64,000 nucleotides of DNA, taken from assembly GCF_016026235.1 (NCBI RefSeq), contig NZ_CP065613.1, one strand, 5' to 3'. The notes below the pieces were generated by a model. It was not told the origin of the DNA and ran no database searches. It saw only the letters and a program-made list of their open reading frames with translations. How positions within the stretch are numbered: position 1 is the stretch's first letter; the number at the start of each line of letters is the position of its first letter. Both the position numbers and the translations under genes were made by a program. This document shows positions 16,336 through 62,702 of this stretch, in pieces. The stretch is from Escherichia coli. Lineage in GTDB: Bacteria > Pseudomonadota > Gammaproteobacteria > Enterobacterales > Enterobacteriaceae.

Positions 16336-16668
16336 GTGCCTAATGCCCGCTCTCACGCTGTACTGACCACTGAATCAAAGGTCACGATACGCGGACAAAC
16401 AACTATCCCCGCGCCAGTGCGTGAGGCCTTAAAACTGAAGCCAGGCCTGGACAACATTCATTACGAAATTCTGCCTGGTGGGCAAGTATTTATGTGCCGA
16501 CTGGGAGATGAACAGGAGGATCATACTATGAATGCATTTTTGCGTTTTCTGGATGCAGATATCCAGAACAACCCGCAAAAAACTCGTCCATTCGACATTC
16601 AACAAGGAAAGAAACTTGTCGCTGGCATGGACGTCAACATTGATGATGAGATTGGCGACGACGAATAA
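16336..16668 (+). CDS. prlF: type II antitoxin / transcriptional autoregulator PrlF (AbrB/SpoVT-like)
   Basis: 110-aa ORF with GTG start, acidic C-terminus DDEIGDDE; stop overlaps next ATG (TAATG). Confidence 0.85.
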   Translation: MPNARSHAVLTTESKVTIRGQTTIPAPVREALKLKPGLDNIHYEILPGGQVFMCRLGDEQEDHTMNAFLRFLDADIQNNPQKTRPFDIQQGKKLVAGMDVNIDDEIGDDE

Positions 16669-17132
16669 TGGATTTTCCACAAAGGGTTAATGGTTGGGCG
16701 CTATATGCTCATCCCTGTTTTCAGGAAACCTACGACGCTTTAGTTGCCGAAGTCGAGACATTAAAGGGAAAAGATCCTGAAAATTATTAGAGAAATGCCG
16801 CCACAAAGTTATTGGCAGCAGTTCACAAAGTGATTGAGGAGCATATCACGGTCAATCCATCATCACCGGCATTCCGTCATGGCAAGTCGTTAGGCTCTGG
16901 GAAAAATAAAGACTGGTCACGGGTAAAATTTGGTGCTGGTCGTTATCGTCTCTTCTTTCGTTATAGTGAAAAAGAGAAAGTCATCATTCTGGGATGGATG
17001 AACGATGAAAACACGCTGCGCACCTACGGTAAAAAAACAGATGCCTATACCGTATTCAGCAAAATGTTAAAAAGAGGACATCCTCCTGCCGACTGGGAAA
17101 CCCTCACCCGAGAGACAGAAGAAACCCATTGA
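16668..17132 (+). pseudogene. yhaV: YhaV ribonuclease toxin reading frame interrupted by in-frame TAG at codon 41 (16788..16790)
   Basis: ATG at 16668 gives MDFPQRVNGWALYAHPCFQETYDALVAEVETLKGKDPENY then TAG, then 113 further in-frame codons without stop. Confidence 0.7.
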
Positions 17133-17186: not shown

Positions 17187-17996
17187 TCACTCCCCGACCA
17201 GAATCACTTCAACCCCAGCCTTTCGCAGTCCTTCCAGACTATCCGCAGGAATGCCTTCATCAACAATGATCATGTCGATACGTTGAGTATCAATGATCTT
17301 ATGTAAACTGGAACGATTGAATTTACTGGAATCGGTGACCACGATGATCCGTTCCGCAACTTCGCACATCCGGCGGTTTAAACGGGCTTCATCTTCATTA
17401 TGTGTGCTGACGCCGCGCTCCAGATCGATCGCATCTACACCAAGAAACAGCATATCGAAGTGGTAATTTTGCAGCGATTGCTCAGCCTGATCGCCGTAAA
17501 AAGATTGCGACTGACGGCGCAAATGCCCGCCGGTCATCAGCAGCTCAACGCCTTCCGCTTCCAGCAACGCATTAGCCACGTTCATACCGTTGGTCATCGC
17601 AATTACGTCAGTGTGCTTGCGCATCAGACGAGCAATCTCAAAAGTGGTGGTCCCGGAATCGAGGATCACCCGATGACCTGGCTGAATCAACTCAACGGCA
17701 GCTTTCGCAACGCTGCGTTTCATCGCGGTGTTCAGTGCGCTTTTATCTTCCACTGATGGCTCGACTGACGGCGTCGTGCTATCGCAGATCAACGCGCCAC
17801 CATAGGCACGCACAGCGATCCCCTGCTTTTCCAGAAACGCCAGATCGTTGCGGATCGTCACAGTAGATACGCCATACAATGCCGACAGATCGTTAACCTG
17901 CACACTCCCTTGCTGTCGCAGACGCTGAATGATCTGTTCTCGTCGCTCGCTGGTGCCTGTCACTCGCTTCTCACCTGAAGCGTCGGTATTACTCAT
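17187..17996 (-). CDS. agaR: DeoR-family repressor of the aga regulon
   Basis: 269-aa ORF with DeoR HTH ([20 protein letters not shown]). Confidence 0.9.
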
Positions 17997-18244
17997 AGTA
18001 AGTCCTTTCGTAAAACTTTCGTTTCATTTCGTTTTGCCTATTAACGCCTTTCTATTAAGCAAATGCAAGCCCACCTTGCCCATTGACGCAAGCTACTCTC
18101 GTTTCAGTGACTTTCATTATGTTTCTTTTGTGAATCAGATCAGAAAACTATTATCTTTCGTTTTATTTTTATCTCACCATGACGCAGTATCAACTGAAAC
18201 AAAACGAAAGATTAATATCGCAGTAATCTGAACTGGAGAGGAAA
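17997..18244. promoter_or_regulatory. divergent agaR / kbaZ promoter with multiple CTTTCGTTT-type repeats (AgaR operator-like)
   Basis: Repeats visible: cctttcgtaaaactttcgtttcatttcgtttt, tatctttcgttttattttt, aaacaaaacgaaagatta. Confidence 0.6.
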
Positions 18245-19525
18245 GTGAAACATCTGACAGAAATGGTGAGACAGCACAAAGCGGGCAAAACAAATGGAAT
18301 TTATGCCGTTTGTTCCGCACATCCGCTGGTGCTGGAGGCTGCAATCCGCTACGCCAGTGCAAATCAAACGCCGTTACTGATTGAAGCAACCTCCAATCAG
18401 GTAGACCAGTTCGGCGGTTATACCGGAATGACGCCCGCCGATTTTCGCGGCTTTGTTTGTCAGCTCGCCGACTCGTTGAATTTCCCGCAGGATGCGTTGA
18501 TTCTGGGTGGTGACCATCTGGGGCCAAACCGCTGGCAAAACCTGCCGGCCGCTCAGGCAATGGCCAATGCCGATGATTTGATTAAAAGCTACGTTGCGGC
18601 AGGATTCAAAAAAATCCACCTTGATTGCAGCATGTCCTGTCAGGACGATCCAATTCCCTTAACTGATGACATCGTGGCTGAACGCGCCGCCCGTCTGGCG
18701 AAAGTGGCGGAAGAAACCAGTCTTGAACACTTTGGCGAAGCCGATCTGGAGTATGTCATTGGTACCGAAGTGCCGGTACCTGGCGGCGCGCATGAAACCT
18801 TAAGCGAGCTGGCGGTCACCACGCCGGATGCCGCCCGCGCCACGCTGGAAGCCCATCGTCACGCCTTTGAAAAGCAGGGTCTGAATGCCATCTGGCCACG
18901 CATCATTGCCCTGGTGGTTCAACCCGGCGTCGAATTCGATCACACCAACGTTATTGATTATCAGCCCGCCAAAGCGACCACCTTAAGCCAGATGGTCGAA
19001 AACTACGAAACGCTGATTTTCGAAGCGCACTCTACCGATTATCAAACGCCGCAATCGCTGCGCCAGCTGGTGATTGACCACTTTGCCATTCTGAAAGTTG
19101 GCCCGGCGCTGACCTTCGCCCTGCGTGAAGCTCTGTTCTCTCTGGCGGCGATTGAAGAAGAACTGGTGCCAGCAAAAGCCTGTTCTGGTCTGCGTCAGGT
19201 GCTGGAAAACGTGATGCTCGACCGCCCGGAATACTGGCAAAGCCACTACCACGGTGACGGCAACGCGCGTCGTCTGGCGCGTGGTTATAGCTACTCGGAT
19301 CGCGTGCGCTATTACTGGCCGGACAGCCAGATTGATGACGCTTTCGCTCATCTGGTACGTAATCTGGCGGATTCACCAATTCCGCTGCCGCTGATCAGCC
19401 AGTATCTGCCGCTGCAGTACGTGAAAGTTCGCTCCGGCGAGCTGCAGCCAACGCCACGGGAACTCATTATCAACCATATTCAGGACATCCTGGCGCAGTA
19501 CCACACAGCCTGTGAAGGCCAATAA
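18245..19525 (+). CDS. kbaZ: tagatose-1,6-bisphosphate aldolase non-catalytic subunit
   Basis: 426-aa ORF, GTG start with SD ggagagg. Confidence 0.9.
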
Positions 19526-19547
19526 GCAAAACAAAGAGGAACACGCT

Positions 19548-20021
19548 ATGCCAAATATTGTTTTAAGCCGGATTGATGAACGCTTGATTCACGGTCAGGT
19601 CGGCGTTCAGTGGGTCGGATTTGCGGGGGCAAATCTGGTGCTGGTAGCCAACGATGAGGTTGCCGAAGATCCGGTACAACAAAACCTGATGGAAATGGTA
19701 CTGGCAGAAGGGATCGCCGTACGTTTCTGGACGCTGCAAAAAGTTATCGACAACATTCATCGCGCCGCCGATCGACAGAAAATCCTGCTGGTTTGTAAAA
19801 CACCCGCCGATTTCCTGACGCTGGTGAAAGGTGGCGTTCCGGTGAATCGCATTAACGTTGGCAATATGCACTACGCCAATGGCAAGCAACAAATCGCCAA
19901 AACGGTTTCTGTGGATGCGGGCGATATCGCAGCATTTAACGACCTGAAAGCCGCTGGGGTGGAATGCTTCGTTCAGGGCGTCCCGACAGAGCCTGCTGTG
20001 GACCTCTTTAAATTACTTTGA
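19548..20021 (+). CDS. agaV: PTS N-acetylgalactosamine-specific EIIB
   Basis: ORF track 19512..20021; ATG at 19548 gives 157 aa, MPNIVLSRIDERLIHGQ. Confidence 0.85.
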   Translation: MPNIVLSRIDERLIHGQVGVQWVGFAGANLVLVANDEVAEDPVQQNLMEMVLAEGIAVRFWTLQKVIDNIHRAADRQKILLVCKTPADFLTLVKGGVPVNRINVGNMHYANGKQQIAKTVSVDAGDIAAFNDLKAAGVECFVQGVPTEPAVDLFKLL

Positions 20022-20031
20022 GGGATTCATC

Positions 20032-20811
20032 ATGGAAATCAGTCTGTTGCAGGCATTCGCGTTGGGCATTATCGCCTTTATCGCTGGCCTGGATATGTTT
20101 AACGGCTTAACCCATATGCACCGCCCGGTGGTCCTCGGCCCGTTAGTCGGGCTGGTACTTGGCGATCTGCATACCGGTATTTTAACCGGCGGTACGCTGG
20201 AACTGGTGTGGATGGGGCTGGCCCCGTTGGCGGGCGCACAGCCGCCTAACGTGATTATCGGTACTATCGTCGGCACGGCGTTTGCCATTACTACTGGCGT
20301 GAAACCCGATGTCGCAGTCGGTGTCGCCGTACCTTTCGCTGTCGCAGTACAGATGGGGATTACCTTCCTGTTCTCGGTGATGTCTGGCGTGATGTCTCGC
20401 TGCGACCGGATGGCGGAGAACGCCGATACTCGCGGCATTGAACGCGTAAACTATCTGGCACTGCTGGCACTCGGCACTTTCTATTTTCTCTGCGCTTTCC
20501 TGCCTATCTACTTCGGCGCGGAACATGCAAAAACCATCATTGATGTCCTGCCGCAACGATTAATCGACGGCCTCGGCGTCGCAGGCGGCATCATGCCAGC
20601 AATCGGTTTTGCCGTGCTGCTGAAAATCATGATGAAAAACGTCTACATCCCCTACTTCATCCTGGGCTTTGTTGCCGCAGCCTGGCTCAAGTTACCGGTG
20701 CTGGCTATTGCTGCCGCCGCGCTGGCGATGGCGCTGATCGATCTGTTGCGTAAATCTCCTGAACCGACTCAACCTGCGGCACAGAAAGAGGAATTTGAAG
20801 ATGGCATCTAA
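20032..20811 (+). CDS. agaW: PTS N-acetylgalactosamine-specific EIIC (full length)
   Basis: 259-aa membrane ORF. Confidence 0.85.
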   Translation: MEISLLQAFALGIIAFIAGLDMFNGLTHMHRPVVLGPLVGLVLGDLHTGILTGGTLELVWMGLAPLAGAQPPNVIIGTIVGTAFAITTGVKPDVAVGVAVPFAVAVQMGITFLFSVMSGVMSRCDRMAENADTRGIERVNYLALLALGTFYFLCAFLPIYFGAEHAKTIIDVLPQRLIDGLGVAGGIMPAIGFAVLLKIMMKNVYIPYFILGFVAAAWLKLPVLAIAAAALAMALIDLLRKSPEPTQPAAQKEEFEDGI

Positions 20812-21679
20812 TCAAACCACCCTGCCGAACGTCAGTGAAAACGAAGAAACATTGCTGACTGGCGTCAATGAAAACGTGTATGAAGATCAGAGCATTGGCG
20901 CGGAGCTGACGAAAAAAGATATCAACCGCGTCACCTGGCGTTCCATGCTGTTACAAGCGTCTTTTAACTACGAACGTATGCAGGCTTCTGGCTGGTTGTA
21001 CGGTCTGCTGCCTGCTCTGAAAAAGATCCACACTAATAAACGCGACCTAGCGCGCGCCATGAAGGGGCATATGGGTTTCTTCAATACCCATCCGTTTCTG
21101 GTGACATTTGTTATCGGCATTATCCTTGCGATGGAGCGTTCTAAGCAGGACGTTAACAGTATTCAGAGCACCAAAATTGCCGTCGGTGCGCCGCTCGGCG
21201 GGATTGGCGATGCAATGTTCTGGCTAACGCTACTGCCGATTTGTGGCGGGATTGGAGCCAGTCTGGCATTGCAAGGCTCCATTCTTGGCGCAGTCGTCTT
21301 TATTGTGCTGTTCAACGTGGTACACCTGGGGCTGCGTTTTGGTCTGGCGCATTATGCTTACCGCATGGGCGTGGCGGCGATTCCACTCATTAAAGCGAAT
21401 ACCAAAAAAGTCGGCCATGCTGCGTCTATCGTTGGGATGACGGTAATCGGTGCGCTGGTGGCAACCTATGTTCGTTTAAGCACCACGCTGGAAATCACAG
21501 CGGGCGACGCAGTGGTTAAGTTACAGGCTGATGTTATTGACAAACTGATGCCTGCCTTCTTACCGCTGGTCTATACCCTGACCATGTTCTGGCTGGTACG
21601 TCGCGGCTGGAGTCCGCTACGCCTGATTGCGGTTACCGTGGTTCTCGGCATCGTCGGTAAATTCTGCCATTTCCTTTAA
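20801..21679 (+). CDS. agaE: PTS N-acetylgalactosamine-specific EIID
   Basis: ORF track 20795..21679; ATG at 20801 gives 292 aa; overlaps agaW stop. Confidence 0.85.
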   Translation: MASNQTTLPNVSENEETLLTGVNENVYEDQSIGAELTKKDINRVTWRSMLLQASFNYERMQASGWLYGLLPALKKIHTNKRDLARAMKGHMGFFNTHPFLVTFVIGIILAMERSKQDVNSIQSTKIAVGAPLGGIGDAMFWLTLLPICGGIGASLALQGSILGAVVFIVLFNVVHLGLRFGLAHYAYRMGVAAIPLIKANTKKVGHAASIVGMTVIGALVATYVRLSTTLEITAGDAVVKLQADVIDKLMPAFLPLVYTLTMFWLVRRGWSPLRLIAVTVVLGIVGKFCHFL

Positions 21680-21696
21680 ATACAATGAGGTATTAG

Positions 21697-22131
21697 ATGT
21701 TAAGTATTATTTTGACAGGGCATGGCGGGTTTGCCAGTGGCATGGAAAAAGCAATGAAGCAAATCCTCGGTGAGCAATCGCAGTTTATCGCCATCGATTT
21801 TCCGGAAACCTCAAGCACCGCGCTGCTTACATCGCAGCTTGAAGAGGCCATCGCCCAACTGGATTGTGAAGATGGCATTGTTTTTCTGACGGATTTGCTG
21901 GGCGGCACGCCGTTTCGCGTAGCTTCAACGCTGGCGATGCAAAAACCGGGCTGTGAAGTGATCACCGGCACCAATTTGCAACTGCTACTGGAGATGGCGC
22001 TGGAGCGCGAAGGGTTAAGCGGTGAAGAATTCCGTGTACAGGCGCTGGAGTGTGGACATCGTGGGCTGACCAGTCTGGTGGACGAGTTAGGCCGCTGCCA
22101 TGAAGAATGTCCGGTCGAGGAAGGGATATGA
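21697..22131 (+). CDS. agaF: PTS EIIA component (mannose family)
   Basis: 144-aa ORF; stop overlaps agaA start (ATGA). Confidence 0.85.
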   Translation: MLSIILTGHGGFASGMEKAMKQILGEQSQFIAIDFPETSSTALLTSQLEEAIAQLDCEDGIVFLTDLLGGTPFRVASTLAMQKPGCEVITGTNLQLLLEMALEREGLSGEEFRVQALECGHRGLTSLVDELGRCHEECPVEEGI

Positions 22132-23261
22132 CACACGTTCTGCGCGCCAGAAGGCTGCTGACTGAAGAGGGATGGCTCGATGACCATCAGTTGCGTATTG
22201 CTGACGGTGTCATCGCAGCAATCGAACCGATTCCAGTGGGCGTGACTGAACGCGATGCGGAACTGCTCTGCCCCGCTTACATCGACACCCATGTACACGG
22301 TGGTGCGGGCGTTGATGTAATGGATGACGCGCCGGATGTGCTCGACAAGCTGGCAATGCACAAGGCACGCGAAGGTGTCGGCAGTTGGTTACCGACTACC
22401 GTAACCGCGCCGCTTAATACCATTCATGCGGCGCTGAAACGTATTGCGCAACGTTGCCAACGCGGCGGACCTGGTGCGCAAGTGCTGGGGAGTTATCTCG
22501 AAGGACCGTACTTCACGCCGCAGAATAAAGGCGCGCATCCGCCGGAGTTGTTTCGCGAGCTTGAAATTGCCGAGCTGGATCAATTGATTGCCGTTTCTCA
22601 GCACACCTTACGCGTGGTAGCGCTGGCACCGGAAAAAGAGGGGGCATTGCAGGCCATCCGCCATCTTAAACAGCAAAATGTACGAGTGATGCTGGGGCAT
22701 AGCGCGGCGACCTGGCAACAAACTCGCGCCGCGTTTGATGCTGGTGCCGACGGCCTGGTGCATTGCTATAACGGGATGACAGGTTTACATCACCGCGAAC
22801 CGGGAATGGTTGGCGCGGGATTAACGGACAAGCGCGCCTGGCTGGAACTGATAGCCGATGGTCATCATGTGCATCCGGCGGCGATGTCGCTGTGTTGTTG
22901 CTGTGCGAAAGAGAGAATCGTGCTGATCACCGACGCGATGCAGGCAGCCGGGATGCCGGATGGTCGCTATACGTTATGTGGCGAAGAAGTGCAGATGCAC
23001 GGTGGCGTTGTCCGTACCGCGTCCGGTGGGCTGGCGGGCAGTACGCTGTCTGTTGATGCGGCAGTGCGCAATATGGTCGAGTTGACGGGCGTAACGCCTG
23101 CGGAAGCCATTCATATGGCATCGCTGCATCCGGCGCGAATGCTAGGTGTTGATGGTGTTCTGGGATCGCTTAAACCGGGCAAACGCGCCAGCGTCGTTGC
23201 GCTGGATAGCGGGCTGCATGTGCAACAAATCTGGATTCAGGGTCAATTAGCTTCGTTTTGA
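22128..23261 (+). CDS. agaA: N-acetylgalactosamine-6-phosphate deacetylase (full length)
   Basis: ORF track 22107..23261; ATG at 22128 gives 377 aa, MTHVLRARRLL. Confidence 0.85.
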   Translation: MTHVLRARRLLTEEGWLDDHQLRIADGVIAAIEPIPVGVTERDAELLCPAYIDTHVHGGAGVDVMDDAPDVLDKLAMHKAREGVGSWLPTTVTAPLNTIHAALKRIAQRCQRGGPGAQVLGSYLEGPYFTPQNKGAHPPELFRELEIAELDQLIAVSQHTLRVVALAPEKEGALQAIRHLKQQNVRVMLGHSAATWQQTRAAFDAGADGLVHCYNGMTGLHHREPGMVGAGLTDKRAWLELIADGHHVHPAAMSLCCCCAKERIVLITDAMQAAGMPDGRYTLCGEEVQMHGGVVRTASGGLAGSTLSVDAAVRNMVELTGVTPAEAIHMASLHPARMLGVDGVLGSLKPGKRASVVALDSGLHVQQIWIQGQLASF

Positions 23262-23335
23262 TGGTTTGCTCCATTATTGGGCCTTCACTTCCCCCGTAAG
23301 GCCTTTCTTTTTCTTTCGTTTTGATCTGTGCAGCG

Positions 23336-23393
23336 GTGTCGGATGCGACGCTAACGCGTCTTATGCGACCTACGGTACGCCGCATCCGGCAAT
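23336..23393. repeat. REP-like palindromic element
   Basis: gtcggatgcgacgctaacgcgtcttatgcgacctac ... gccgcatccggc, REP-like dyad. Confidence 0.5.
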
Positions 23394-23399
23394 CGGTGA

Positions 23400-23611
23400 A
23401 CATAGCGACGTCATTACGCAATTCTTTAATCTTCCCTTGTCTTTTCTTTCAATGATCGCAGATTTCGTTTTATTTCCTTTTTCTCCATTGAACTTTCGGT
23501 TTCTTTTCTATAGATTTTAATCAACGAAAGACATCACCAAGTGAAATGAAACGAAAGGCAAGTGAAAGCGACAACGCCCGACGTCAAGTTCATCAGACTA
23601 AGGATTGAGTT
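23400..23611 (+). promoter_or_regulatory. agaS promoter region with CTTTCGTTT-type repeats (AgaR operator-like)
   Basis: Repeats: gatttcgttttatttcc, aactttcggtttcttttc, aacgaaagacatc, gaaatgaaacgaaaggcaagtgaaagc. Confidence 0.55.
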
Positions 23612-24766
23612 ATGCCAGAAAATTACACCCCTGCTGCCGCCGCATCCGGTACATGGACTGAAGAAGAGATCCGCCATCAGCCTCGCGCATGGATCCGTTC
23701 ACTCACCAACATCGACGCGCTACGTTCCGCGCTCAATAACTTCCTTGAACCGTTACTGCGCAAAGAGAATCTGCGGATCATCCTGACCGGAGCCGGAACC
23801 TCGGCATTTATCGGTGACATCATCGCGCCGTGGCTCGCCAGCCATACCGGTAAAAACTTCAGCGCCGTACCAACCACCGATCTGGTCACTAATCCGATGG
23901 ACTACCTGAACCCAGCTCATCCGCTGCTGTTGATCTCCTTCGGTCGATCCGGCAACAGCCCGGAAAGCGTCGCTGCCGTGGAACTGGCAAATCAATTTGT
24001 ACCGGAATGCTATCACCTGCCGATTACCTGCAACGAAGCGGGCGCTCTTTACCAAAACGCGATCAACAGCGATAACGCGTTTGCCCTGCTGATGCCCGCA
24101 GAAACGCACGATCGCGGCTTTGCGATGACCAGCAGCATTACCACCATGATGGCCAGCTGCCTCGCGGTTTTCGCACCTGAGACGATCAACAGCCAAACCT
24201 TCCGCGACGTGGCGGATCGTTGCCAGGCGATCCTGACCTCACTGGGCGATTTCAGCGAAGGTGTGTTTGGTTACGCACCGTGGAAACGGATCGTTTATCT
24301 CGGCAGCGGTGGCTTACAGGGCGCAGCACGCGAGTCGGCGCTGAAAGTGCTGGAACTGACGGCGGGTAAACTGGCGGCCTTTTATGATTCTCCAACCGGA
24401 TTCCGTCATGGACCAAAATCGCTGGTCGATGACGAAACGCTGGTGGTGGTATTTGTCTCCAGCCACCCTTACACCCGTCAGTATGATCTTGATCTGCTGG
24501 CTGAACTCCGCCGTGACAACCAGGCAATGCGCGTAATCGCCATCGCCGCGGAAAGCAGCGACATCGTCGCTGCCGGTCCACATATCATCCTACCGCCGTC
24601 ACGTCACTTTATCGACGTTGAGCAGGCATTTTGCTTCCTGATGTACGCCCAGACGTTTGCACTGATGCAGTCGCTGCACATGGGCAATACGCCGGATACC
24701 CCATCAGCCAGTGGCACCGTTAACCGCGTGGTGCAAGGCGTAATCATTCATCCGTGGCAGGCATAA
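23612..24766 (+). CDS. agaS: galactosamine-6-phosphate deaminase/isomerase (SIS domains)
   Basis: 384-aa ORF, SD aaggattgag. Confidence 0.9.
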   Translation: MPENYTPAAAASGTWTEEEIRHQPRAWIRSLTNIDALRSALNNFLEPLLRKENLRIILTGAGTSAFIGDIIAPWLASHTGKNFSAVPTTDLVTNPMDYLNPAHPLLLISFGRSGNSPESVAAVELANQFVPECYHLPITCNEAGALYQNAINSDNAFALLMPAETHDRGFAMTSSITTMMASCLAVFAPETINSQTFRDVADRCQAILTSLGDFSEGVFGYAPWKRIVYLGSGGLQGAARESALKVLELTAGKLAAFYDSPTGFRHGPKSLVDDETLVVVFVSSHPYTRQYDLDLLAELRRDNQAMRVIAIAAESSDIVAAGPHIILPPSRHFIDVEQAFCFLMYAQTFALMQSLHMGNTPDTPSASGTVNRVVQGVIIHPWQA

Positions 24767-25639
<873 letters not shown>

Positions 25640-25733: not shown

Positions 25734-25742
25734 ATCAGTACA
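25734..25742. repeat. left copy of 9-bp target-site duplication ATCAGTACA
   Basis: Identical 9-mer directly abuts both IS1 ends. Confidence 0.9.
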
Positions 25743-25757
25743 GGTAATGACTCCAAC

Positions 25758-26261
25758 TTATTGATAGTGTTTTATGTTCAGATAATGCCCGATGACTTTG
25801 TCATGCAGCTCCACCGATTTTGAGAACGACAGCGACTTCCGTCCCAGCCGTGCCAGGTGCTGCCTCAGATTCAGGTTATGCCGCTCAATTCGCTGCGTAT
25901 ATCGCTTGCTGATTACGTGCAGCTTTCCCTTCAGGCGGGATTCATACAGCGGCCAGCCATCCGTCATCCATATCACCACGTCAAAGGGTGACAGCAGGCT
26001 CATAAGACGCCCCAGCGTCGCCATAGTGCGTTCACCGAATACGTGCGCAACAACCGTCTTCCGGAGACTGTCATACGCGTAAAACAGCCAGCGCTGGCGC
26101 GATTTAGCCCCGACATAGCCCCACTGTTCGTCCATTTCCGCGCAGACGATGACGTCACTGCCCGGCTGTATGCGCGAGGTTACCGACTGCGGCCTGAGTT
26201 TTTTAAGTGACGTAAAATCGTGTTGAGGCCAACGCCCATAATGCGGGCAGTTGCCCGGCAT
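25758..26261 (-). CDS. insB: IS1 InsB (transposase C-terminal part, made as InsAB' by -1 frameshift)
   Basis: 167-aa [25 protein letters not shown]... Confidence 0.9.
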
Positions 26262-26455
26262 CCAACGCCATTCATGGCCATATCAATGATTTTCTGGTGC
26301 GTACCGGGTTGAGAAGCGGTGTAAGTGAACTGCAGTTGCCATGTTTTACGGCAGTGAGAGCAGAGATAGCGCTGATGTCCGGCGGTGCTTTTGCCGTTAC
26401 GCACCACCCCGTCAGTAGCTGAACAGGAGGGACAGCTGATAGAAACAGAAGCCAC
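26180..26455 (-). CDS. insA: IS1 InsA (transposition inhibitor / transposase N-terminal part)
   Basis: 91-aa [43 protein letters not shown] (zinc-finger + HTH). Confidence 0.9.
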
Positions 26456-26510
26456 TGGAGCACCTCAAAAACACCATCATACACTAAATCAGTAAGTTGG
26501 CAGCATCACC

Positions 26511-26519
26511 ATCAGTACA
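26511..26519. repeat. right copy of 9-bp target-site duplication ATCAGTACA
   Basis: Identical to 25734..25742. Confidence 0.9.
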
Positions 26520-26582: not shown

Positions 26583-27059
26583 ATGAGCAGTCCAAATATT
26601 CTCTTAACCCGTATTGATAACCGTCTGGTTCACGGTCAGGTTGGCGTGACCTGGACATCCACCATCGGTGCGAATCTGCTGGTAGTCGTGGATGATGTTG
26701 TCGCTAACGATGATATTCAACAGAAATTAATGGGTATTACCGCAGAAACCTACGGCTTTGGCATTCGTTTCTTTACTATCGAAAAAACCATTAACGTCAT
26801 CGGCAAAGCTGCACCGCATCAGAAGATCTTCCTGATTTGCCGTACGCCACAAACGGTACGTAAATTGGTAGAAGGTGGCATTGACCTGAAAGATGTCAAC
26901 GTCGGCAATATGCATTTCTCGGAAGGGAAAAAGCAAATCAGCAGTAAAGTTTATGTCGATGACCAGGATCTCACGGACTTACGTTTTATTAAACAACGTG
27001 GCGTGAATGTTTTCATTCAGGACGTCCCTGGCGATCAAAAAGAACAAATCCCTGACTAA
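26583..27059 (+). CDS. agaB: PTS galactosamine-specific EIIB
   Basis: 158-aa ORF, paralogous to agaV (LTRIDNRLVHGQVG). Confidence 0.9.
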   Translation: MSSPNILLTRIDNRLVHGQVGVTWTSTIGANLLVVVDDVVANDDIQQKLMGITAETYGFGIRFFTIEKTINVIGKAAPHQKIFLICRTPQTVRKLVEGGIDLKDVNVGNMHFSEGKKQISSKVYVDDQDLTDLRFIKQRGVNVFIQDVPGDQKEQIPD

Positions 27060-27097
27060 ATCTAAAATCGCCTTAATATTGGTTTGAGGTAATAAAA

Positions 27098-27901
27098 ATG
27101 CATGAAATAACCCTACTTCAGGGATTATCCCTGGCGGCGTTAGTTTTCGTTCTGGGGATTGATTTTTGGCTGGAAGCCTTATTTTTATTCCGCCCGATAA
27201 TCGTTTGTACCCTAACTGGCGCTATTCTCGGTGATATTCAGACTGGCTTAATTACCGGTGGTCTGACAGAGTTGGCTTTCGCCGGATTAACCCCTGCAGG
27301 TGGTGTTCAGCCGCCCAACCCGATTATGGCGGGTCTGATGACCACCGTCATTGCATGGTCTACGGGCGTTGATGCCAAAACAGCAATTGGTCTTGGCCTG
27401 CCGTTTAGTTTGTTAATGCAGTACGTCATTCTGTTCTTCTATTCCGCTTTCTCATTATTTATGACCAAAGCCGATAAATGCGCGAAAGAGGCGGATACGG
27501 CAGCGTTTTCCCGGCTTAACTGGACAACGATGCTCATCGTCGCTTCAGCGTATGCGGTGATTGCGTTCCTCTGTACTTACCTGGCACAAGGGGCGATGCA
27601 GGCGCTGGTGAAAGCGATGCCCGCCTGGTTGACCCACGGCTTTGAAGTGGCTGGCGGTATTCTGCCTGCCGTTGGTTTTGGCTTGCTGCTGCGCGTAATG
27701 TTCAAAGCGCAATATATCCCTTACCTGATCGCCGGTTTCCTGTTTGTTTGCTACATCCAGGTCAGCAACCTGTTGCCGGTTGCCGTACTGGGCGCAGGCT
27801 TTGCGGTGTATGAGTTTTTCAATGCGAAATCCCGGCAGCAAGCGCAACCGCAGCCCGTTGCCAGTAAAAATGAAGAAGAGGACTACAGCAATGGGATCTG
27901 A
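27098..27901 (+). CDS. agaC: PTS galactosamine-specific EIIC
   Basis: 267-aa membrane ORF. Confidence 0.9.
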   Translation: MHEITLLQGLSLAALVFVLGIDFWLEALFLFRPIIVCTLTGAILGDIQTGLITGGLTELAFAGLTPAGGVQPPNPIMAGLMTTVIAWSTGVDAKTAIGLGLPFSLLMQYVILFFYSAFSLFMTKADKCAKEADTAAFSRLNWTTMLIVASAYAVIAFLCTYLAQGAMQALVKAMPAWLTHGFEVAGGILPAVGFGLLLRVMFKAQYIPYLIAGFLFVCYIQVSNLLPVAVLGAGFAVYEFFNAKSRQQAQPQPVASKNEEEDYSNGI

Positions 27902-28682
27902 AATCAGTAAAAAAGATATCACCCGTCTGGGCTTTCGTTCGTCGCTGCTGCAAGCGAGCTTTAACTACGAAAGGATGCAGGCGGGCGGTTTTACCTGGGC
28001 GATGTTGCCGATCCTGAAAAAGATTTATAAGGACGACAAACCGGGCCTAAGCGCGGCGATGAAAGATAACCTCGAATTTATTAATACCCACCCGAATCTG
28101 GTCGGATTCCTGATGGGGTTATTAATTTCGATGGAAGAAAAAGGAGAAAACCGCGACACCATTAAAGGCCTCAAAGTGGCACTGTTTGGCCCAATCGCCG
28201 GGATTGGCGATGCGATTTTCTGGTTTACTTTGTTGCCGATTATGGCGGGAATTTGCTCATCATTTGCCAGCCAGGGAAACCTGCTGGGGCCGATTCTATT
28301 TTTCGCCGTTTACCTGCTTATCTTTTTCCTGCGCGTCGGCTGGACCCACGTCGGTTATTCAGTCGGCGTGAAGGCGATCGATAAAGTGCGAGAGAACTCG
28401 CAGATGATTGCTCGCTCGGCAACCATCCTCGGGATCACGGTAATCGGGGGGCTGATCGCTTCGTATGTGCATATTAACGTGGTGACATCGTTTGCCATCG
28501 ACAGTACCCACAGCGTCGCACTGCAACAGGATTTCTTCGATAAAGTCTTCCCGAACATTTTACCGATGGCCTACACCCTGCTGATGTATTACTTCCTGCG
28601 GGTGAAAAAAGCGCATCCGGTGCTGTTAATCGGCGTGACTTTTGTGCTCTCTATTGTTTGTTCCGCATTCGGCATTTTGTAA
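27891..28682 (+). CDS. agaD: PTS galactosamine-specific EIID
   Basis: ORF track 27744..28682; ATG at 27891 gives 263 aa (MGSEISKKDITRLGF); overlaps agaC end. Confidence 0.85.
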   Translation: MGSEISKKDITRLGFRSSLLQASFNYERMQAGGFTWAMLPILKKIYKDDKPGLSAAMKDNLEFINTHPNLVGFLMGLLISMEEKGENRDTIKGLKVALFGPIAGIGDAIFWFTLLPIMAGICSSFASQGNLLGPILFFAVYLLIFFLRVGWTHVGYSVGVKAIDKVRENSQMIARSATILGITVIGGLIASYVHINVVTSFAIDSTHSVALQQDFFDKVFPNILPMAYTLLMYYFLRVKKAHPVLLIGVTFVLSIVCSAFGIL

Positions 28683-29438
28683 ATGGAACGAGGCACTGCG
28701 TCTGGCGGTGCCTCTTTACTTAAGGAATTTCATCCTGTGCAAACCCTTCAGCAAGTTGAAAACTATACGGCGTTAAGTGAACGTGCCAGCGAATATTTAT
28801 TGGCCGTGATCCGTAGCAAACCGGATGCCGTGATTTGCCTGGCGACCGGAGCCACGCCATTACTGACGTATCATTATCTGGTAGAAAAAATCCACCTGCA
28901 GCAGGTTGATGTCAGCCAGCTCACCTTCGTCAAGCTCGACGAATGGGTGGATCTGCCATTAACGATGCCTGGCACCTGCGAAACTTTCCTGCAACAGCAT
29001 ATCGTGCAGCCGCTGGGGCTACGTGAAGACCAGCTCATCAGCTTTCGCTCCGAAGAGATAAATGAGACAGAGTGCGAACGGGTAACGAACCTGATTGCGC
29101 GCAAAGGCGGTCTGGATTTATGCGTTCTCGGATTGGGGAAAAACGGTCATCTTGGGCTGAACGAACCGGGAGAAAACCTGCAACCGGCCTGCCATATCAG
29201 TCAACTTGATGCCAGAACACAGCAACATGAGATGTTAAAAACCGCGGGTCGCCCCGTGACTCGTGGGATCACCTTAGGCCTGAAGGATATTCTCAATGCC
29301 CGCGAGGTTTTGTTACTGGTGACTGGCGAAGGAAAGCAGGATGCGACAGAACGTTTTCTCACGGCTAAAGTCTCTACCTCTATCCCGGCTTCGTTTTTGT
29401 GGCTGCACAGTAACTTTATTTGTTTAATTAATACCTAA
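28683..29438 (+). CDS. agaI: galactosamine-6-phosphate isomerase/deaminase-like (NagB family)
   Basis: 251-aa ORF. Confidence 0.85.
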   Translation: MERGTASGGASLLKEFHPVQTLQQVENYTALSERASEYLLAVIRSKPDAVICLATGATPLLTYHYLVEKIHLQQVDVSQLTFVKLDEWVDLPLTMPGTCETFLQQHIVQPLGLREDQLISFRSEEINETECERVTNLIARKGGLDLCVLGLGKNGHLGLNEPGENLQPACHISQLDARTQQHEMLKTAGRPVTRGITLGLKDILNAREVLLLVTGEGKQDATERFLTAKVSTSIPASFLWLHSNFICLINT

Positions 29439-45780: not shown

Positions 45781-45910
45781 GTAAATATGCTCGTCATACT
45801 TCAAGTTGCATGTGCTGCATCTGCATTCGTTCACCCCAGTCACTTACTTATGTAAGCTCCTGGGGATTCACTCTCTTGTCGCCTTCCTGCAACTCGAATT
45901 ATTTAGAGCA

Positions 45911-45983
45911 CAGCTCACTTTGTTAACAACTTTAACTACTCTTTAATGCAGTATTAAAGATTAATCGGTAACAAAGTGAGCTG
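45911..45983 (+). promoter_or_regulatory. nested inverted repeat immediately upstream of yhbW start codon
   Basis: 15-bp perfect arms CAGCTCACTTTGTTA (45911..45925) / TAACAAAGTGAGCTG (45969..45983) enclosing inner hairpin ctttaat-gcagt-attaaag; ATG at 45986. Confidence 0.5.
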
Positions 45984-53762: not shown

Positions 53763-53936
53763 ATCTTCTGCGCATCCTCGCGACTAATGACAACCCTAAC
53801 CCAGCTCTATGTGGGTAAAGCCTCTCATTAGCCGCGCGAACCTCTGCAACGGAAGATCATTCATAGCAACAATACATTAGTTTCCAGTGAATTGCTGCCG
53901 TCAGCTTGAAAAAAGGGGCCACTCAGGCCCCCTTTT
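53763..53936 (+). ncRNA. sraG: small RNA SraG (PsrO), antisense to the pnp leader
   Basis: Position between rpsO and pnp on opposite strand, recalled from K-12 annotation; + strand hairpin ggggcc-actca-ggcccc followed by T-run at 53915..53936. Confidence 0.4.
53909..53936. terminator. bidirectional rho-independent terminator (rpsO on minus strand)
   Basis: aaaaaaggggccactcaggcccccttttct. Confidence 0.7.
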
Positions 53937-53952: not shown

Positions 53953-54318
<366 letters not shown>

Positions 54319-55789: not shown

Positions 55790-55875
55790 CGTTGGCCTGA
55801 TAAGACGCGCCAGCGTCACATCAGGCAATCCATGCCGGATGCGGCGTAAACGCCTTATCCCGCATGGAACCCTAA
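55790..55875. repeat. REP-like palindromic elements
   Basis: ggcctgataagacgcgccagcgtcacatcaggc and gccggatgcggcgtaaacgccttatcccgcatgg. Confidence 0.6.
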
Positions 55876-60545: not shown

Positions 60546-60606
60546 GCCCACCCCCAAGACATAAAAAAAGGGCCTAAAGCCCAGTTATTCTGTAGTCAGA
60601 TAACAA

Positions 60607-60631
60607 AAAACCCCGATAAATCGGGGCTTTA
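60607..60631 (-). terminator. hairpin between metY and rimP (operon leader attenuator)
   Basis: ccccga-taaa-tcgggg with A6 run (T-run on minus strand). Confidence 0.5.
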
Positions 60632-60751
60632 TATAACTGAACCCTATAACCGCAACTGCGGTCTGGAGCACTTTCCAGAAGGATTTTTTCAAATCCCACT
60701 ACGAAGGTCGAAGTCTTCACAGTATATTTGAAAAAGGACTCTAAGGGAAAG

Positions 60752-60828
<77 letters not shown>

Positions 60829-61160: not shown

Positions 61161-62519
<1,359 letters not shown>

Positions 62520-62540
62520 TATCATAGCTTTCGTGCTAAA

Positions 62541-62563
62541 GGCCGCAAATGCGGCCTTTTTTT
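62541..62563 (+). terminator. rho-independent terminator after argG
   Basis: ggccgcaaatgcggcc followed by T7. Confidence 0.7.
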
Positions 62564-62702
62564 ACGGCTAAGAGAATGTGACTGCGTTTAGGGGCCACCA
62601 TGTCCGAATTCGGAATTAAAGTAAAAGTTAAATGAAATAAAGTAAATTTCAGCGCATTCTATTTTTGCTTTATGTTTTTATGCTCAGTAAAAGGAATGAC
62701 CG

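Follow-up and report, generated by a model that had tools for sequence, protein, structure and literature searches.

The stretch of Escherichia coli DNA analysed here, 64,000 nucleotides in all and hereafter called the window, carries five consecutive plus-strand genes, agaV, agaW, agaE, agaF and agaA, at positions 19548-23261. agaV (19548-20021) codes for a 157-residue EIIB component of the phosphotransferase system (PTS) specific for N-acetylgalactosamine (Aga); it has its phospho-His15 and is identical to AgaV of E. coli C. Next come agaW (20032-20811, 259 residues), for an EIIC component identical to those of E. coli C and O157, agaE (20801-21679, 292 residues), for an EIID component, and agaF (21697-22131, 144 residues), for an EIIA component common to the Aga and galactosamine (Gam) systems, in which His9 and Gly91 are present and residue 101 is a V101A variant. 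The last gene, agaA (22128-23261, 377 residues), codes for an N-acetylgalactosamine-6-phosphate deacetylase of the NagA family. Our ORF check of the window found no internal stops or frameshifts in any of the five, and the lengths given in the original prediction for agaW, agaE, agaF and agaA are those of complete ORFs with full-length NCBIfam matches. The two overlaps that it described are also present. That between agaF and agaA is an ATGA (22128-22131); the start of agaE overlaps the stop of agaW by 11 nt (ATGGCATCTAA, 20801-20811), and this overlap is hence of another type. A GAGG-type Shine-Dalgarno motif lies 6-12 nt 5' of every start in the block, within which we infer that translation may be coupled. 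The gene order is annotated likewise in thousands of genomes, and the pattern is therefore not due to chance.

The block is part of kbaZ-agaVWEFA, with agaR divergent on one side and agaS-kbaY following on the other, which is the context of the Aga PTS. The agaR gene (17187-17996, minus strand), so annotated in homologous loci, codes for a DeoR-family protein of 269 residues that represses the aga regulon and has the same sequence as its counterparts in E. coli C and O157:H7. Between it and kbaZ (also called agaZ; 18245-19525, plus strand), which is the first gene of the operon and, following its annotation in homologous loci, codes for a tagatose-bisphosphate aldolase subunit of 426 residues, the Pr/Pz region (18013-18213) contains matches to the AgaR operator at 18013-18036, 18108-18131 and 18190-18213. 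Three further matches, at 23300, 23459 and 23537, are found together with a REP-like palindrome in the agaA-agaS intergenic region (23262-23611), the Ps promoter region. The motif searched was a consensus that we take to be that of Ray & Larson 2004. It occurs six times in the whole window, where 0.15 would be expected, and always within these two aga promoter regions. In a generic promoter and terminator scan, shuffled sequence gave more promoter-like sites than the real one, and the scan was uninformative at Pz and Ps; an Rfam scan of the aga cluster found no RNA family inside it. Downstream, agaS (23612-24766), for a GalN-6-P deaminase/isomerase, and kbaY (24779-25639), for an aldolase, are on the plus strand and intact. 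Both are needed for Aga catabolism, in which the role of agaS has been described (PMC3668189).

Family membership was assessed with NCBIfam equivalog models and their curated cut-offs. AgaV matched the full profile of NF008508 (319.9 bits for a cut-off of 180), AgaW that of NF040757 (410.8 for 300) and AgaF that of NF040761 (218.1 for 130), while AgaE matched NF040760 (615.7 for 500) over positions 1-292 of 292. All four components of an Aga PTS (IIB, IIC, IID and IIA) are thus encoded full-length and score above the equivalog cut-offs. As for AgaA, it matched the nagA model TIGR00221 over residues 3-372 (289.1 bits for a cut-off of 225.65) and aligned over some 370 residues with solved NagA structures, namely 7NUT (E=1.7e-59) and E. 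coli NagA (1YMY/1YRR/2P50, E=1.6e-49), which places it among the NagA/AgaA amidohydrolases. The four-component architecture is that of the mannose-family PTS (ManXYZ; TC 4.A.6). Indeed, AgaF aligns with IIA-Man (1PDO/1VRC, E=2.5e-16), its His9 facing His10 of the latter, and AgaV aligns with IIB-Man and IIB-Sor, its His15 corresponding to the conserved His of the RIDxRLxHGQV motif in the IIB structures 3EYE and 8YRI. The phospho-acceptor role of these IIA and IIB histidines is established. Unlike in ManX, where they are fused, IIA and IIB are separate polypeptides in the Aga system, whose substrate is N-acetylgalactosamine and whose IIA also serves a second transporter, AgaBCD.

We therefore read 19548-23261, with a probability of about 90% and on the strength of its sequence, as the central part, in canonical and undeleted form, of the kbaZ-agaVWEFA operon of E. 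coli, which would function in Aga uptake and deacetylation. AgaF (EIIA), AgaV (EIIB), AgaW (EIIC) and AgaE (EIID) would form a mannose-family phosphotransferase transporter that imports N-acetylgalactosamine and phosphorylates it through a relay from PEP to EI, HPr, AgaF-His9 and AgaV-His15. AgaA would then deacetylate Aga-6-P to GalN-6-P, which AgaS, PfkA and KbaY/KbaZ would convert to triose phosphates. Pz and Ps would be repressed by AgaR until the sugar arrives.

The reference for this assignment is E. coli C (ATCC 8739), whose aga/gam cluster was reportedly characterised by Brinkkötter et al. in 2000. The kbaZ-agaVWEFA and agaS-kbaY-agaBCDI genes have identical order, orientation, lengths and overlaps in the two sequences. 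AgaR, AgaV, AgaW, AgaC and AgaD are identical, and the remaining proteins of the cluster have 1-6 residue differences each. DNA identity over the five-gene block is 98.9%, with 41 nucleotide differences in 3714 bp. Only five of these are non-synonymous, which indicates purifying selection; the resulting substitutions (two in AgaE, one in AgaF, two in AgaA and none in AgaV or AgaW) are conservative. E. coli C lacks both the AgaF V101A variant of the window and the IS1 element described below. Experimentally, it is Aga+ Gam+ (PMC3668189). With 0-2 residue differences per protein from E. coli C, growth on Aga is predicted for the source of the window, and the block is presumably expressed.

It is conceivable, if improbable, that the block is intact and the strain nevertheless Aga-negative, because a point substitution such as AgaF V101A or KbaY E159K disables the pathway in the manner of AgaF G91S in O157:H7. 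We take G91S, found in some O157 outbreak isolates, to be the AgaF substitution of the Aga-negative O157:H7 isolates. There is a precedent, as a lone substitution in AgaF abolishes Aga use in some O157:H7 isolates (PMC3668189). The A101 variant is moreover rare, the exact 63-mer occurring in one of 5426 complete genomes, and genes nearby have decayed in the lineage, as seen in yhaV (Q41*) and in the IS1 insertion within the cluster. Yet the G91S allele is absent from AgaF of the window, which has G91, and both phospho-histidines are intact. Replacement of Val by Ala is conservative, and position 101 is a hydrophobic helix position, away from His9/His10, at which IIA-Man has Leu in the alignment. 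Furthermore, the public collection has 48 blocks with the same AgaF allele, some of them in unrelated backgrounds of 96.8-98.7% DNA identity, which indicates that the allele persists in nature. V101A is probably harmless. The O157:H7 strains (e.g. ATCC 43888 / EDL933) otherwise resemble the window in having an intact agaVWEFA block, 99.0% identical in DNA, but they have nonsense codons at agaC codon 8 and agaI codon 72, whereas both genes are open in the window. In FDAARGOS_943, the closest complete genome, agaA is annotated with a 1-bp frameshift or deletion, matching position ~22183 of the window, which does not have it. This suggests that the lineage may tolerate the loss of agaA, in agreement with the ability of nagA to substitute for agaA (PMC3668189).

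The canonical, undeleted block differs from its K-12 counterpart by a segment of 2305 bp (20408-22712) that blastn and junction alignment with K-12-type loci (L002 and L003) showed to be absent from K-12, close to the 2.3 kb initially proposed. It is bounded by a 6-bp direct repeat, GCGACC, with one copy in agaW (20402-20407) and one in agaA (22707-22712), and the K-12 junction maps to 20407/22713 of the window. K-12 would have lost the segment by deletion between the two hexamers. It retains agaW codons 1-125 and agaA codons 196-377, and agaE and agaF are gone. In the K-12 allele, agaW codon 125 is fused to agaA codon 196 (...CGCTGCGACC joined to TGGCAAC...), and by arithmetic the 376 nt retained of agaW run into agaA out of frame. 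The deletion allele is not in the window, as the 2305 bp are present between the GCGACC copies and the junction 40-mer, which 369 other genomes have, is missing. The Aga-negative phenotype of K-12 is attributed to this deletion in the literature (PMC9628945, PMC2808357, PMC3668189), as the original prediction had it. The alignments that it proposed, with the aga regions of K-12, E. coli C and O157, showed the latter two intact like the window and K-12 deleted, and K-12 thus does not carry the complete block.

Otherwise, the K-12 locus has the same flanks (garD, prlF-yhaV, agaR, kbaZ and agaV upstream, agaS-kbaY-agaBCDI downstream) with 97.6-98.8% identity, but only fragments of agaW and agaA and no IS1 at this place. 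The window is 97.6-99.0% identical to MG1655, as against 99.9% to FDAARGOS_943, and 100% identical to GCA_900449985.1. By sequence, then, it is not from a K-12 derivative, in line with the non-K-12 background proposed at the outset. The intact block marks this background in a trivial sense only, since it is the majority state in E. coli and K-12 is the exception: the region is contiguous in 4931 of 5426 complete genomes (~91%), with 96.6-99.9% identity, and the K-12 junction occurs in 369-371 (~7%), almost exclusively laboratory derivatives of K-12. The junction is 100% identical in 367 genomes, which indicates a single recent deletion event. That a deleted background regained the intact block through recombination or horizontal transfer, or that the K-12 form is the older one, is barely credible even with recombination being frequent in E. 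coli, given this uniform junction with its deletion-type microhomology, the contiguity of the intact form over the full identity range, and the divergence of both flanks from K-12, which equals that of the rest of the window. As for the description of the intact PTS as 'ancestral', its undeleted, majority status holds, and its ancestry is inferred from the distribution within E. coli only.

In the downstream half of the cluster, the IS1 element of 768 bp mentioned in the original prediction (25743-26510, insA/insB on the minus strand), flanked by a 9-bp target duplication (ATCAGTACA, 25734-25742 and 26511-26519), is inserted 103 bp past kbaY and 72 bp ahead of agaB. K-12, E. coli C, O157 and FDAARGOS_943 have no IS1 at this place. 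An exact-protein look-up found the insertion, identical, in GCA_900449985.1 and GCA_031665325.1. Among the 5426 complete genomes, the exact junction had no single-piece match, only other IS1 positions nearby; some 30 of them harbour IS1 at several other sites in or just before agaB. The agaB, agaC and agaD genes, for the galactosamine PTS IIB, IIC and IID, and agaI (26583-29438, plus strand) are all intact ORFs separated from Ps by the IS1, and the motif search of the window found no AgaR-operator match 5' of agaB. The IS1 has probably cut off agaBCDI, and with it galactosamine uptake, from the agaS promoter; it leaves the Aga system untouched and probably affects the galactosamine half. From the position of the element between kbaY and agaB, we predict an Aga+ phenotype and regard Gam as doubtful. 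A further and rather doubtful reading is that the IS1 yields an Aga+ Gam- state by a route unlike those of K-12 (agaF deletion) and O157:H7 (agaC nonsense), and that the galactosamine transporter might be selected against repeatedly, as the insertions in some 30 genomes would then show.

The contrast between the intact aga block and the K-12 deletion is already known, to the point of being textbook-level. It reportedly goes back to Brinkkötter 2000, and another earlier source is Hu 2013 (PMC3668189). Since 2000 the literature has covered the deletion together with its size and phenotype, and what our analysis adds is detail rather than discovery, namely the exact boundaries with their GCGACC microhomology and the ~7% frequency. 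The observation has little import beyond strain typing. Nevertheless, N-acetylgalactosamine is derived from mucin and has relevance for colonisation of the gut, and the observation predicts that, in contrast to K-12, the source strain should import this sugar and use it for growth.

The original prediction of complete, full-length agaV, agaW, agaE, agaF and agaA genes held, as the six-frame ORF list, the raw sequence and direct translation agree on five plus-strand genes: agaV (19548-20021, 157 aa), agaW (20032-20811, 259 aa), agaE (20801-21679, 292 aa), agaF (21697-22131, 144 aa) and agaA (22128-23261, 377 aa). No internal stop was found in the translations of the five, and a GAGG-type ribosome-binding site lies upstream of each start codon. 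Both predicted overlaps are present: the ATGA at 22128-22131 is common to agaF and agaA, and the end of agaW shares 11 nt (ATGGCATCTAA) with the start of agaE. The translational coupling that was claimed with them can reasonably be inferred from this arrangement.

As profile matches, we counted those to a full NCBIfam profile above its curated cut-off, and all five proteins pass: AgaV (NF008508, 319.9 bits for a cut-off of 180), AgaW (NF040757, 410.8 for 300), AgaE (NF040760, 615.7 for 500), AgaF (NF040761, 218.1 for 130) and AgaA (TIGR00221, nagA, 289.1 for 225.65). In alignments, AgaF His9 corresponds to His10, the phospho-histidine of IIA-Man, and G91 is kept, AgaV His15 corresponds to the histidine conserved among IIB domains of solved structure, one of them that of E. 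coli AgaB (3EYE), and AgaA aligns over approximately 370 residues with solved NagA deacetylases. AgaF carries a V101A substitution (codon at 21997-21999), a rare allele whose exact 63-mer occurs in one of 5426 complete genomes (strain A41); in the wider collection, 48 blocks have it, spread over several divergent backgrounds. As position 101 pairs with a Leu of IIA-Man within a helix, the substitution is probably neutral.

The best-supported mechanism is the textbook N-acetylgalactosamine (Aga) PTS and catabolic pathway, whose genetics were worked out in E. coli C (ATCC 8739) (PMC3668189). The phosphoryl group would be relayed from PEP to EI, HPr, AgaF and then AgaV, and the sugar would enter via AgaW/AgaE. 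AgaA, which NagA can replace, would deacetylate the product of uptake, AgaS would deaminate and isomerise the product of AgaA, and phosphorylation by PfkA would precede cleavage by KbaY/KbaZ. In the absence of the sugar, AgaR would keep the system repressed.

The agaR, kbaZ, agaS and kbaY genes are all present and open in the window. AgaV, AgaW and AgaR are identical to those of E. coli C, whereas AgaE differs by two residues, AgaF by one and AgaA by two, all conservative. Across the 3714 bp of the block (19548-23261), five of the 41 nucleotide differences from E. coli C change an amino acid, a pattern that indicates purifying selection. A search with the AgaR operator consensus, which reportedly goes back to Ray and Larson in 2004, gave 6 matches for 0.15 expected, three in the agaR-kbaZ and three in the agaA-agaS intergenic region. 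The promoters Pz and Pr have been placed in the former region and Ps in the latter (PMC3668189).

The kbaY-agaB intergenic region harbours a 768-bp IS1 (25743-26510, with minus-strand insA and insB), flanked by a 9-bp target duplication (ATCAGTACA) at 25734-25742 and 26511-26519. It lies inside the agaS-kbaY-agaBCDI operon, 103 bp past kbaY and 72 bp ahead of agaB. No genome among the 5426 complete ones of E. coli has this exact insertion; an identical one is present in GCA_900449985.1 and GCA_031665325.1. IS1 is classically polar in both orientations. As the aga promoters described are Pr, Pz and Ps (PMC3668189), and as the consensus search found no AgaR operator motif before agaB, agaBCDI would depend on read-through from Ps. 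The element thus probably exerts polarity on the genes of the galactosamine PTS, with galactosamine uptake reduced or lost, and the upstream Aga system would be unaffected. Approximately 32 complete E. coli genomes have a same-orientation IS1 elsewhere, just past kbaY or within agaB, and at least six distinct spacings occur among them. By a rough estimate, in which genomes were counted and clones not merged, IS1 copies in the kbaY-agaB-agaC interval show no clear excess over the background rate.

FDAARGOS_943, the closest complete E. coli genome, is 99.9% identical to the window over 12.7 kb, the next-best genomes reaching 99.1%, and UGFA01000002.1 (GCA_900449985.1) matches it at 100% over 12,435 bp, IS1 included. 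The FDAARGOS_943 locus (L001) lacks one base in the early part of agaA (GATGACCATC to GATGCCATC), matching window position ~22183, where the agaA of the window is intact, and its gene is annotated as frameshifted. Either a genuine mutation or a fault in the assembly could explain this 1-bp deletion. Elsewhere, codon 41 of yhaV (16668-17132, plus strand), whose product is the toxin in the PrlF-YhaV toxin-antitoxin pair, is a stop (Q41*), which the FDAARGOS_943 annotation also carries; prlF (16336-16668), which encodes the antitoxin, is intact.

MG1655 is collinear with the window at 97.6-99.0% identity and differs structurally, beyond the aga deletion and the IS1, at three places. Near rnpB, the window has fewer repeat copies: K-12 is ~478 bp longer between yhaC and rnpB (window 9517-9580), and the extra length includes two additional copies of a 64-bp segment, single in the window. 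Between ubiV and yhbW, the window has a 120-bp insertion relative to K-12 (~45793-45911), an ERIC/IRU repeat since the ERIC1R primer sequence ATGTAAGCTCCTGGGGATTCAC lies inside it. Between argG and leuU, the alignment bears out the replacement noticed earlier, as ~1.2 kb of unrelated DNA (62512-63688) stands in place of yhbX. It contains a 317-aa ORF (62703-63656, plus strand) whose N-terminus matches an HTH profile only weakly and below threshold (PF12844, 25.1 bits for a cut-off of 30.2). The Rfam matches at gathering threshold (9558-9934, 53765-53936, 54166-54280, 55794-55864, 60563-60663, 60755-60828 and 63734-63817) comprise rnpB, SraG, the S15 leader, naRNA4, the rimP leader and two tRNAs at the metY and leuU positions, none of them unexpected in this part of the chromosome.

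A K-12-type locus (L002) and that of MG1655 (L003) match the window through 20407 and again from 22703-22713. Base-by-base inspection sets the K-12 deletion at 20408-22712, i.e. 2305 bp, in keeping with the ~2.3 kb loss cutting agaW and agaA that the original prediction had described. The hexamer GCGACC, present at 20402-20407 and 22707-22712 in the window, is single in K-12, as is typical of a microhomology deletion. What remains in K-12 is 125 codons of agaW and one further nt (376 nt in all), together with agaA codon 196 and all that follows, mutually out of frame and labelled as partial pseudogenes in RefSeq. That this 2.3-kb loss, which includes the EIIA gene agaF, accounts for the inability of K-12 to use N-acetylgalactosamine, as the original prediction also had it, is stated in three publications (PMC9628945; PMC2808357, citing Brinkkötter et al. 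2000; PMC3668189).

A 300-bp probe over the K-12 junction was contiguous in 371 of the 5426 complete genomes, and a 40-nt junction-only probe matched 369, 367 of them at 100% identity. An even sample of these 369 consists mostly of MG1655, W3110, DH5α, J53, EC600, BW25113, MC4100 and derivatives; a few junction genomes are unlike K-12 in size or source, such as TUM12357 (chicken, 5.03 Mb) and A134_1EC (4.81 Mb). A further 85 genomes have no match to the 5-kb probe (kbaZ-3' to agaS-5') and nearly all match the wider region; aga losses larger than that of K-12 therefore exist. The interpretation of the block as undeleted, in a non-K-12 background, is supported. The intact state read from the window is shared by 4931 of the 5426 genomes, in which 19000-24000 is contiguous (at least 80% of the query) at 96.6% to 99.9% identity. 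The subject is already known. The intact aga block is the majority state and the rule for the species, to which K-12 makes an exception.
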